Below are positions 1-3,000 of a stretch of DNA of 42,050 nucleotides, piece after piece. Each line of letters opens with the position of its first letter. Position 1 is the stretch's first letter. Made by a program: the position numbers. The DNA lies in the IMG/VR virus record IMGVR_UViG_2718218402_000004, positions 1 through 42,050 of that record. One strand, 5' to 3'. This stretch comes from a virus (lineage: Duplodnaviria; Heunggongvirae; Uroviricota; Caudoviricetes).

Positions 1-3000
1 TTATATCTTACTTAATACCACACTAATAAGATCTTGCTTTCCGCCATGGTAAGATTGCATTATTTGACTTTCACTCCATAAACGGTCAGAAACATTATAA
101 GATGATATATCTATTGGATTAAATTCATTCCTTACACGGTCATATAAGACATTTGTCTCTGTTGTATCGATAAAAAGAACTCCTTTTTGCTCCAGCCTGT
201 CAAACATATCGTAAATAGCCTGCTCAGCCTGTACTGGCAATGACGAAATATTAAAAAGCGACTCCCCGCTTATTTTATTCATTCTAATACCAAGAACATC
301 ATCATTGTCGCCATATATTTTTTCTGCACTCCCGGCGCCATAATATTTGTTGAAGCAACGAACTTCGTTTGTCACCTCTTCATGGCTTTGAGATGTTGTA
401 AACATCTTCAGAACTTTTGTTGCATCCTCCGCATCTTCATACACTACAGCGTTCCCCCCCTTGCCAATAACATTACCCAGCACAGGCAACCTGTTATAAT
501 CCACACTAGGCAACTCTGGCAGTGCATAATCAACAGGAGGTAAATCAGGTCTGTTCGAATGAACACTTCCTCTTTCCATAGCCCTATTCACTGGCGATGA
601 ATTCAGCATCACCTCAATTTTCCTGCTAATCTCTCCCTTAGGCCATCCCAGCCTGTGCAACAGATTAGTAAAGCAACCACTATGACTTTCTCTTGTAACG
701 CAAAACTTATTATCAGTGACAACAACACGATATGTTCTGTTGCCCACCTTTACTTGCGCCCCATTATCAGAGTGAACTGCAGCATCCCTTACAGAGGATA
801 GAACACGATTATCAGGCGAAGTCAGGTTTCTGGTTAAAGAACTCCATGAACATCCCAAATTTATAGAAGAGGGCGATAACATACATTTCAACCTTCAAAA
901 TAGACCTATCCAAACATTCCTAACAAACATCCCCCGGACATTGCAACACAAAACCGGAGCCGGACTCCGGTTTTGTGAAACTGTCGGGTTACTTCATCCC
1001 GCCAATATTTTCCCACTTCCCGTCAGCACGCAGAATTTGCAGCGGTCTTACCACGCACTGTATCTGCTTTTTATCCGCATCCAGTATCACCACCTGCGTG
1101 ATTACCCTGGCCTGCTCCGGAATAATACCATTCTCATCTGACTCCAGGATGTCTGCCGGCCCCAGACGCAGTTGTGCTGTAAGTAACTCCCCGTGTTCAC
1201 GGTCATCATGCTTTCCGTACCCGCACAGACGCTGCATAAGTTTTTTTAGTACGTTCATGTCATTCTCCTGTTCTGCCTGTATCACTGCCCACTTCATCCA
1301 GCCCCTTAACATCCTGCCACGGCCCGTCACCAAACCTGACCTGCAAATGCTGAAACAGCCCCTGAACCTGTGTGGCATCTTTGGGGTCAAGAAAGGTCAG
1401 TCCGGTGATGAGTGCGCCATCTGTATCCGGGAACCAGCCATTGCTGTTTGTCTCAATAATGCTCGCCGGCCCCAGACGAAAACGGATTTGTGTCTCCCCC
1501 GGGTCGCCCTTCGGTCCCTGAGGTCCGGTTGCCCCCACCGGGCCAGCCGCACCTGTTTCTCCTTTCGGTCCCTGTGGGCCTGCCGCACCGGTATCTCCCT
1601 TTGGACCCTGTGGACCTGCATTTCCCGTCAGACCGGTCTCTCCCCGCTCTCCCCTGTCACCTTTCGGCCCCTGCGGGCCTGCCGGACCAGCATCACCTGC
1701 CGGTCCCCGTTCGCCGGTTGCCCCGACAGGGCCGGTGTCACCGCGCTCTCCCTTATCACCCTTCGGCCCCTGAGGACCCGCGGGCCCCTGCTCCCCCTTT
1801 GGCCCGGGAGGTCCCACCACGGTGGGGATTCGGTTTACGGCGTCTTCCGCCGCTATCCTGCTTTGTTCCGCTGACTGTGCGCTTTCTGCTGACTCCCGGG
1901 CTTTTTCTGCTGCGGTCGTTGCATCCCTGGCTGCATTACCGGCTGCACTTTCTGCCGTCTTTTTTGACAACTCGGCATCTGCTGCACTTTGTAATGACTC
2001 ACTGGCTTTTTGAGCGGCCGCAGAGGCCGAGGACGAGGACGCCTCCTCTGACTGCTTTGCAGCGGCTGCACTTTCTGCCGCCTGCCGGGCTGACTCCGAT
2101 GCCTCCCCTGCTGAAGTGTCAGCATTTGCAGCGCTCTTTTCTGCCTGACTGGCTGATATGCCGGCATTCCTCGCGGACGTCTCTGCCTCTCCGGCATTCT
2201 TCTTCGCCTCCTCTGCGTGACGCGCCACCTCTTCCACCATCAGTTCAAAACGGCGCAGTGCCTCCGGCCGGACGTCATCCTCCGACATGGCACCGAGAAA
2301 ATCATTCAGCGTACCGGGTTGAGAATCTTCATACACGGTGATGGTCCCGGCATGTGACGGAGGAAATCCCTCCACCAACAGAATAACGCTGTACTGACCG
2401 TACTCAACGTCCATGCTGTAACGACCGGCTTCATCCGGATTTTCTGAGGCCACCGTGTTCACCACCACCGTGGCGCTGTTACGTCTGGCTTTCAGTTGAA
2501 TGGTGCAGTTCTCTACCGGTTTTCCTGTGCCGTCTTTCAGTACACCTGAAATCTTTACTGCCATATTCACCCCACAAAAAAGCCCGCCTGAACCGGCGGG
2601 CTGTCATAACACTGTGTTACCTGGCTAATCAGAACTTATAACCGACACCCATGATGAAACCGTCAGTGCGCCAGTCGCCACTGCCGGAGCCTTCATAAGC
2701 AATATCAATGGCCACGGATTCGGTCGGGTTAAACTGCACGCCAGCTCCCCACGCCAGAGACGTGTTGCTGTGGCGACCGTCATCACTTCCGGTCAGCACG
2801 TCGTGCGTTTTCCCCTTGTTGTCAGTTACGCGGAGATAATCCCCGGAGAAAGTCGACACACGGCTGTAAGCCACACCCGCCATCGCATACGCGCTGAACC
2901 ATTCATTCACGCGCACAGACGGCCCCGCCATTACGCTGAACCAGCGGTTACGAACGGAATCTTCATGCCAGCGGGTATCGCTGTAATGGGTCAGCTGGCG

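Follow-up and report, generated by a model that had tools for sequence, protein, structure and literature searches.

The window analysed here, the whole 42,050-nucleotide (nt) stretch of the IMG/VR virus record IMGVR_UViG_2718218402_000004 (Caudoviricetes; positions 1 to 42,050), contains two lambda-like late-gene regions in head-to-head orientation, each with a gene for a side tail fibre (stf). We refer to the regions as module 1 and module 2 and to their fibre genes as stf1 and stf2. An open reading frame (ORF) check returns both genes with the extents and lengths given in an earlier note on this sequence: stf1 encodes 434 amino acids (aa) and stf2 encodes 944 (Table 1). Both ORFs are intact.

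The two proteins begin in the same way. Direct counting gives 94/100 and 108/115 identical residues, in agreement with the roughly 100 near-identical residues reported before, and BLASTP aligns the two proteins with 119/139 identities (E=4e-80). The Pfam family PF08400 is N-terminal in both (E=5e-69 for stf1, residues 1-133; E=6e-72 for stf2), and both match the collar domain of Ur-lambda Stf (residues 1-93/94; pdb 9E7M, tail fiber protein chain Ta; E=4e-52, by phmmer for stf1). In the cryo-electron microscopy structure of Ur-lambda, Stf residues 1-94 form a six-stranded sheet and a helix, 12 copies of this collar surround the tail at the gpV/gpM junction, and a 10-residue linker leads to a trimeric coiled coil that starts at residue ~102 (PMC12617516). 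DNA homology between the modules spans J through lom and ends at stf codon ~117; identity is ~94% from the lom-stf spacer upstream of the start to this codon. The mosaic joint is sharp (window positions ~2215 and ~35566), and past it only the chance-level similarity of low-complexity sequence is left. A joint at codon ~117 would therefore lie just inside the coiled coil, where any trimeric shaft can be spliced. The earlier description of one anchor with different distal modules is thus correct, with PF08400 and the 9E7M collar in both proteins and distal parts that belong to two fibre types already described.

Beyond the joint, stf1 enters a coil composed of 33% Ala, 17% Ser and 14% Glu, with an Ala periodicity of mainly 3.5 residues. 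An Ala/Ser-rich tract had been assigned to stf2 alone; this holds for stf2, but stf1 also has such a tract, 130 residues rich in Ala, Ser and Glu (residues 116-247), which the first reading had missed. The description of the module 1 fibre as a collagen-like G-X-Y tract followed by a short C-terminal domain is borne out: 36 uninterrupted triplets, with Pro at 17/36 X positions and a Pfam Collagen match over residues 251-309 and beyond, precede 76 C-terminal residues. By direct count stf2 has no G-X-Y tract. Conversely, His-x-His (HxH) boxes are absent from stf1, which for this reason stands outside the lambda Stf/T4 gp37 family beyond the anchor. No gene for a Tfa-type chaperone (Caudo_TAP) was found after stf1 with Pfam, the sole downstream ORF matching PF06820. 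As to whether this fibre requires a chaperone, a question that had been raised, no phage chaperone is needed for folding: in EPclA, the collagen-like fibre whose architecture stf1 shares, PfC and PCoil act as trimerisation modules when expressed alone in a laboratory strain, PCoil being a trimeric coiled coil (PMC3368898).

The Ala/Ser/Thr tract of stf2 covers residues 116-455 (A 37%, S 24%, T 12%), and a SETNA motif recurs in it at spacings of 42, 28 and 84 residues, each a multiple of seven. Because of these spacings and of the Ala period of 3.5 in both proteins, the low-complexity tracts of stf1 and stf2 are read as heptad coiled coils. Seven HxH boxes (residues 785, 817, 831, 884, 898, 907 and 916) lie in the distal part of stf2, and a Caudo_TAP gene, tfa, follows; composition, boxes and chaperone gene together agree with the long Ala/Ser/Thr tract and lambda-Stf-like C-terminus described before. 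Compared with phage lambda, the protein shows 81% identity to orf-401 and 69% to orf-314; stf2 is a lambda Stf orthologue with a longer shaft.

Table 1. Features of the two fibre cassettes and of the surrounding modules in the window (E, expectation value; ORF, open reading frame; T3SS, type III secretion system)
Feature	Position	Strand	Basis or remark
stf1, collagen-like side tail fibre of EPclA architecture, 434 aa + stop	1260-2564	minus	ORF; PF08400, Collagen, PF06820
stf1 residues 1-93, collar (tail-docking) domain	2286-2564	minus	9E7M chain Ta
stf1 residues 94-250, linker and Ala/Ser/Glu-rich heptad coiled coil (PCoil)	1815-2285	minus	composition, periodicity
stf1 residues 251-358, collagen triple helix (predicted), 36 G-X-Y triplets	1491-1814	minus	direct count; Pfam Collagen E=1e-17
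stf1 residues 359-434, PfC distal knob (PF06820) and disordered tail	1263-1490	minus	Pfam E=6e-36, residues 360-423
Stand-alone PfC paralogue, 89 aa (phrog_576; Sp5 ORF68 homologue), last gene of late operon	989-1258	minus	PF06820 residues 28-89, E=5e-35
Intrinsic terminator hairpin closing stf1 cassette	947-977	minus	minimum free energy -22.1 kcal/mol, z=-4.8
Terminator-like hairpin between lom and stf1	2581-2602	minus	identical in module 2
lom of module 1	2629-3228	minus	Pfam Ail_Lom E=6e-122
Terminator-like hairpin on other side of lom, module 1	3259-3276	minus	
J of module 1	3299-6361 and 6268-6711	minus	two ORFs, split by 1-nt indel near ~6365
Tail gene L, module 1	8061-8759	minus	
Tail gene M, module 1	8759-9088	minus	
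Tail gene H, module 1	9085-11664	minus	
Tail gene V, module 1	12530-13282	minus	
Truncated major capsid gene, module 1	15044-15910	minus	
nleH (OspG-type kinase), T3SS effector	1-891	minus	
Truncated nu1, module 2	15912-16331	plus	
Terminase large subunit, module 2	16306-18231	plus	followed by head and tail genes
J of module 2	31087-34485	plus	
Gene order 3' of J, module 2		plus	lom, stf2, tfa, then cif and nleG
Terminator-like hairpin on other side of lom, module 2	34503-34522	plus	
Terminator-like hairpin between lom and stf2	35179-35200	plus	
stf2, lambda-Stf-type side tail fibre, 944 aa + stop	35217-38051	plus	PF08400, Phage_fiber_2 x2, Collar (PF07484)
stf2 residues 1-93, collar domain	35217-35495	plus	9E7M E=4e-52
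stf2 residues 94-460, linker and Ala/Ser/Thr-rich heptad coiled-coil shaft	35496-36596	plus	3.5- and 7.0-residue periodicity
stf2 residues 462-545, two Phage_fiber_2 repeats	36600-36851	plus	Pfam E=1e-37; matches Mu tail fibre protein S, 5YVQ
stf2 residues 700-944, T4 gp37-like needle tip	37314-38048	plus	2XGF E=5e-80
tfa, tail fibre assembly chaperone of stf2	38051-38632	plus	Caudo_TAP E=6.5e-43; 92% identical to lambda Tfa
Terminator-like hairpin after tfa	38689-38715	plus	
T3SS effector genes, including cif and nleG, and right-end partial ORF, module 2 side	39121-39969, 40837-41469, 41640-42050		partial ORF at right window end: no Pfam match

Self-comparison of the window shows that the tail regions of the two modules form an inverted repeat (3756-13825 vs 34043-24005, 90.8% identity), with a second block (2143-3337 vs 35638-34447, 92.5% identity) that holds lom and the 5' end of stf. 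The tail proteins gpV and gpM are 76% and 89% identical between the modules. In both, lom is bracketed by terminator-like hairpins, the second of which lies directly upstream of the stf start and is identical in the two modules; such hairpins would insulate stf from lysogenic lom transcription.

Because of the anchor identity (108/115), the sharp break at codon ~117, the presence of PF08400 and of the 9E7M collar in both proteins and the homologous gpV and gpM, we consider it very likely that stf1 and stf2 are two allelic forms of the lambdoid stf gene, each of a known fibre type, in two inverted late-gene remnants of lambda-like prophages. The N-termini could instead owe their identity to recent gene conversion between co-resident prophages and not to selection for common docking. 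Conversion between the modules does occur: the two J genes agree at every position over their first ~370 nt, vs ~91% identity in the surrounding tail region, which suggests a conversion event there, and the stf 5' end shares its 1.2-kb block of 92.5% identity with lom. For the anchor itself we judge this origin improbable, however. The 5' part of stf is no more alike than the flanking lom and so has not been specially homogenised. Moreover, the domain is 76-81% conserved vs phage lambda, stands at the head of at least nine PHROG fibre families, evolves at a ratio of nonsynonymous to synonymous substitution (dN/dS, Nei-Gojobori) of 0.14 among homologues, and has a docking role solved by structure (PMC12617516).

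Both proteins open with the same ~93-residue collar and the linker, after which a coiled coil, predicted to be trimeric, makes its first turns; by homology with Ur-lambda, twelve collar domains, from four trimers, would wrap the tail at the gpV/gpM junction. Any distal module behind residue ~117 would therefore be mounted on the same tail. In stf1 the distal module consists of the Ala/Ser/Glu coil, a predicted 36-triplet collagen helix and a PfC knob, which would trimerise and is the presumed receptor-binding tip; it would fold without a Tfa-type chaperone. Behind stf1 come the 89-aa PfC-only gene, coupled to it in translation, and a terminator. In stf2 a long Ala/Ser/Thr coil and two Phage_fiber_2 repeats lead to a T4 gp37-like HxH tip that would need the Tfa encoded downstream. 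On this account, the mosaic arose through recombination where the coiled coil begins.

The repeat tracts had been put forward as hotspots for length variation, and natural alleles support this view. Among 43 full-length IMG/VR fibres that lie beside the small ORF, the collagen tract begins at residue 251 in 41 loci and comprises 37 triplets in 33 loci, 38 in four, 36 in three, and 30, 27 and 26+11 in one each. Coil-length changes in these fibres amount to one loss of seven residues (one heptad) and one +4 expansion of a Ser run, and a 374-aa database fibre (P0220) has 63 residues fewer, that is, nine heptads. Published collagen tracts of EPclA range from 63 to 144 aa (Ghosh 2012, PMC3368898). 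Tract length therefore varies mostly in units that keep the structural repeat, namely triplets and mainly heptads. Tandem Repeats Finder reports a sole array (36 bp x 2.1, 84% match), and exact DNA repeats are almost absent from either tract; variation therefore does not come mainly from replication slippage on perfect repeats, and recombination between degenerate repeats is more likely.

The same data bear on whether the tracts are products of assembly collapse or expansion, the condition under which the earlier note would have withdrawn its claim. Short-read assemblies of enterohaemorrhagic Escherichia coli (EHEC) often break in such multi-copy genes, and many database entries are partial. 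This explanation is nonetheless extremely unlikely here: the DNA is no clean tandem repeat, exact tandem repetition being almost nil; an 871-nt stretch spanning collagen, PfC and the small ORF is 100% identical in the complete genome of strain MFDS1001074, where the fibre coding sequence is likewise 1305 nt; the 36-triplet allele occurs in three independent IMG/VR loci; and the stf2 region of NCTC10444 has the same length within 3 nt (3474 vs 3477 nt aligned) at 93% identity.

A collagen-like protein next to effector genes also raises the question of whether stf1 is a phage part at all or a bacterial adhesin or virulence factor carried as a moron. It adjoins nleH, a type III secretion system (T3SS) effector gene, as well as nleF in relatives, and the collagen-like proteins of other pathogens are adhesins (PMC3368898). 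Against this, stf1 bears the tail-docking collar domain and is part of the late operon, with lom before it and the operon terminator after it. The related EPclB was located at the tail ends of phage Sp5 by immuno-electron microscopy and is essential for infectivity (PMC5155283), and gp61 of phi24B has been resolved on the virion (bioRxiv 10.64898/2026.04.10.717836). An adhesin origin is thus hardly credible. Effector genes flank both fibre cassettes (nleH on one side; cif and nleG on the other), and short related sequences mark the boundaries of inserted genes (841-999 vs 38825-38665; 38557-38745 vs 40654-40842).

Some points limit the account of two lambdoid stf alleles, above all the state of these particular copies. 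Module 1 is 98.9% identical to a complete prophage of strain 19KM2326N as far as position 15911, inside the capsid gene, and from 15909 on the match is to nohA and terminase of another prophage in that strain, a Qin-like one; the two halves lie there 430 kb apart in the same orientation. At the junction (~15910; 15044-16331), a 5'-truncated capsid gene (Phage_cap_E profile positions 51-329) is fused to a 5'-truncated nu1/nohA (Phage_Nu1 profile positions 43-164), and this junction is absent from every complete RefSeq E. coli genome searched. Either a misassembly or a rearrangement of the inversion type, involving two prophages, would account for it. Because both late regions are truncated at this point, neither has its own Q, late promoter, lysis or early genes within the window. 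In addition, J of module 1 (~6365) and lom of module 2 (~35100) each carry a 1-nt indel, the latter shifting the final ~12 codons; these are either true pseudogenisation or sequencing errors at short nucleotide runs. Given the truncations and frameshifts, these stf copies may never be assembled into virions, and both genes may not be expressed. In principle, either could be mounted on the tails of another co-resident lambdoid phage, since the anchor is common to both. Finally, prevalence, length variation, the breakpoint, homology and domain content are results of the present analysis, docking geometry, receptor binding and trimer state are read across to these alleles from homologues, and PfC as a receptor-binding knob is an inference accompanied by low-confidence structure predictions.

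For PfC, AlphaFold2 monomer models built on a 17-sequence alignment are all-beta but too poor to be used, with a predicted local distance difference test (pLDDT) score of 59 for the stf1 region and 52 for the 89-aa protein. Foldseek searches of the PDB with these low-confidence models returned nothing at E <= 0.001, the same failure of fold search as in the phi24B preprint (bioRxiv 10.64898/2026.04.10.717836). A profile search of 1.84 billion representative proteins gave 88 matches, mostly short, many of them Escherichia-type proteins or fragments already found, and no link to a known fold. Several of the long multi-stretch matches, among the ten scanned with Pfam, are SprB or CarboxypepD_reg repeat proteins and probably spurious. 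A homologue search with the 79-aa PfC found only short or partial proteins and no architectural diversity. PfC looks like a narrow family.

The small gene behind stf1 matches phrog_576 (E=1e-58), and its 89-aa product, which PGAP names 'phage tail fiber C-terminal domain-containing protein', is 37% identical to the PfC of stf1 itself. Its start lies 1 nt past the stf1 stop (AGGAGAA-TGA-C-ATG, with AGGAG as a Shine-Dalgarno sequence), and the two genes are translationally coupled. A fusion of the two products was considered and rejected: read-through of the TGA meets the next stop after 17 codons, and a shift into the +1 frame, that of the small ORF, would find no slippery re-pairing at GAA-TGA-C. 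No frameshift signal was found in an earlier study either (Mondal 2016, PMC5155283). More simply, AGGAG is the ribosome-binding site of the small ORF.

This arrangement is strongly conserved in 80 IMG/VR loci. The small ORF has 89 aa in 78/78 loci parsed, the junction (Shine-Dalgarno sequence and 1-nt stop-start spacing) is invariant in 74/76, and the upstream gene ends in PfC in 75/76; the terminator after the small ORF is kept, and the flanks downstream of it diverge. By the Nei-Gojobori method, dN/dS is 0.06 for the PfC part of the small ORF (pS 0.13, pN 0.008), 0.42 for its 27-codon N-terminal extension and 0.22 for the PfC of the fibre, with loci picked by protein similarity, which biases dN downward. 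The best 120 homologues come from E. coli, E. albertii and Citrobacter rodentium; every one is a short stand-alone protein, and none is a fibre bearing this PfC type. In our own reading, the small ORF probably encodes an expressed, constrained protein.

What this protein might do is more doubtful. Because of the strong purifying selection seen in the low dN/dS, the invariant junction and the conserved terminator, we tentatively suggest that it could act together with the fibre and be produced at a set ratio to it. It might sit on the PfC knob as a distal cap or adaptor, or exist as a free trimeric knob and occupy receptors; it would then replace the role of Tfa and not be a spare cassette. With similar reserve we consider that the gene may make no working protein: it would be a silent C-terminal cassette kept in reserve, or what is left of a past tip replacement, used only as a recombination reservoir. 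Such a role was proposed for Sp5 ORF68, an 89-aa PfC-only polypeptide that is non-essential (Mondal 2016, PMC5155283). Apparent exchanges between the paralogues are seen in two database proteins. In P0061 the collagen tract passes at a common GPA motif into the PfC of the small ORF, and P0183 combines the N-terminal half of the small ORF with the C-terminal half of the fibre PfC. However, P0061 starts at position 4 of its 3.3-kb contig, right at the edge, and could be an artefact of assembly. The constraint on the PfC part of the small ORF, tighter than on the fibre PfC even if inflated by the choice of loci, the steady length and spacing, and the stand-alone nature of the best homologues likewise speak against a silent reservoir.

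Both cassettes are widespread. The stf1 distal cassette occurs in 715/5426 complete E. coli genomes (~13%), where the median number of places per genome is 11 and the highest 17. It was also found, at 96-97% DNA identity, in 141 phage records, among them VT1-Sakai, phage 2851 and many Stx1a/Stx2c phages. For the stf2/tfa cassette, coverage reaches at least 80% in 1397 genomes, and mEp332, ev099, mEp460 and the PhiR phages match 73-79% of its length at 92-93% identity. We regard the locus as ordinary modular phage biology, in line with textbook tail-fibre modularity: one docking domain lets lambdoid prophages exchange host-recognition modules, and this exchange helps phages that carry Shiga toxin and effectors to pass from one E. 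coli lineage to another. In practice the benefit is for annotation, since precise names can be given to both fibre genes and to the accessory genes beside them; the long spurious ORFs (up to 423 aa) that the coil and collagen regions produce in several further frames of either strand (35440-36985 minus, 35614-36621 plus, 975-2341) should not be annotated as genes. Experiments on PfC, for its fold and its receptor, and on what the PfC-only protein does are worthwhile, as ~13% of complete E. coli genomes carry the collagen-like fibre, often with more than 10 copies each.

In its essentials the feature is already known from EPclA (Ghosh 2012), from lambda Stf/Tfa and its collar (Ur-lambda structure, 2025) and from the PfC-only ORF (Mondal 2016). 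EPclA (ECs2717 of O157:H7 Sakai) has the same domain order as stf1, with PfN, PCoil, a single Col and PfC, and the same position after J and lom in lambdoid prophages; in stf1 these are represented by PF08400 (E=4.6e-69), the heptad PCoil (116-247), one uninterrupted G-X-Y tract and PF06820. The EPclA cassette of VT1-Sakai (Sp15) has 96-97% DNA identity to that of stf1. Recombinant ECs2717 is a trimeric dumbbell with a true collagen helix and a melting temperature of 42 C (Ghosh 2012, PMC3368898), and by analogy stf1 would form a collagen triple-helix trimer. The modal form of EPclA has 37 triplets and 437 aa, whereas stf1, with 36 and 434 aa, is a minor allele (3/43 IMG/VR fibres) in a truncated prophage.

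Compared with lambda Stf/Tfa (9E7M/9MGH, PMC12617516) and the tip of T4 gp37 (2XGF), stf2 is alike in its collar, heptad coil, Phage_fiber_2 repeats, gp37-like HxH needle and tfa directly downstream, whereas stf1 resembles lambda Stf only in its first ~153 residues (76% identity). Ur-lambda Stf binds OmpC and speeds adsorption (PMC12617516). The tip of lambda Stf is 69% identical to that of stf2, whose receptor specificity may differ from the OmpC of lambda. With 944 aa, stf2 also has a longer shaft, the Ur-lambda Stf having 774 aa.

The small ORF corresponds to Sp5 ORF68/phrog_576 (PMC5155283) in its ~89 aa, in PF06820 after a short N-terminal extension and in its place directly behind a PfC-ended fibre. 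ORF68, however, follows an EPclB fibre on a short-tailed phage, and the small ORF follows an EPclA fibre on a lambda-type tail. EPclB and its counterparts in short-tailed Stx phages (phi24B gp61, the 933W tail fibre) have the PfN, PCoil, collagen and PfC blocks in common with stf1. They differ in having two collagen tracts divided by a Phage_fiber_2 repeat, where stf1 has a single tract, and in docking on a podovirus adaptor ring with two of three N-domains bound (bioRxiv 10.64898/2026.04.10.717836).

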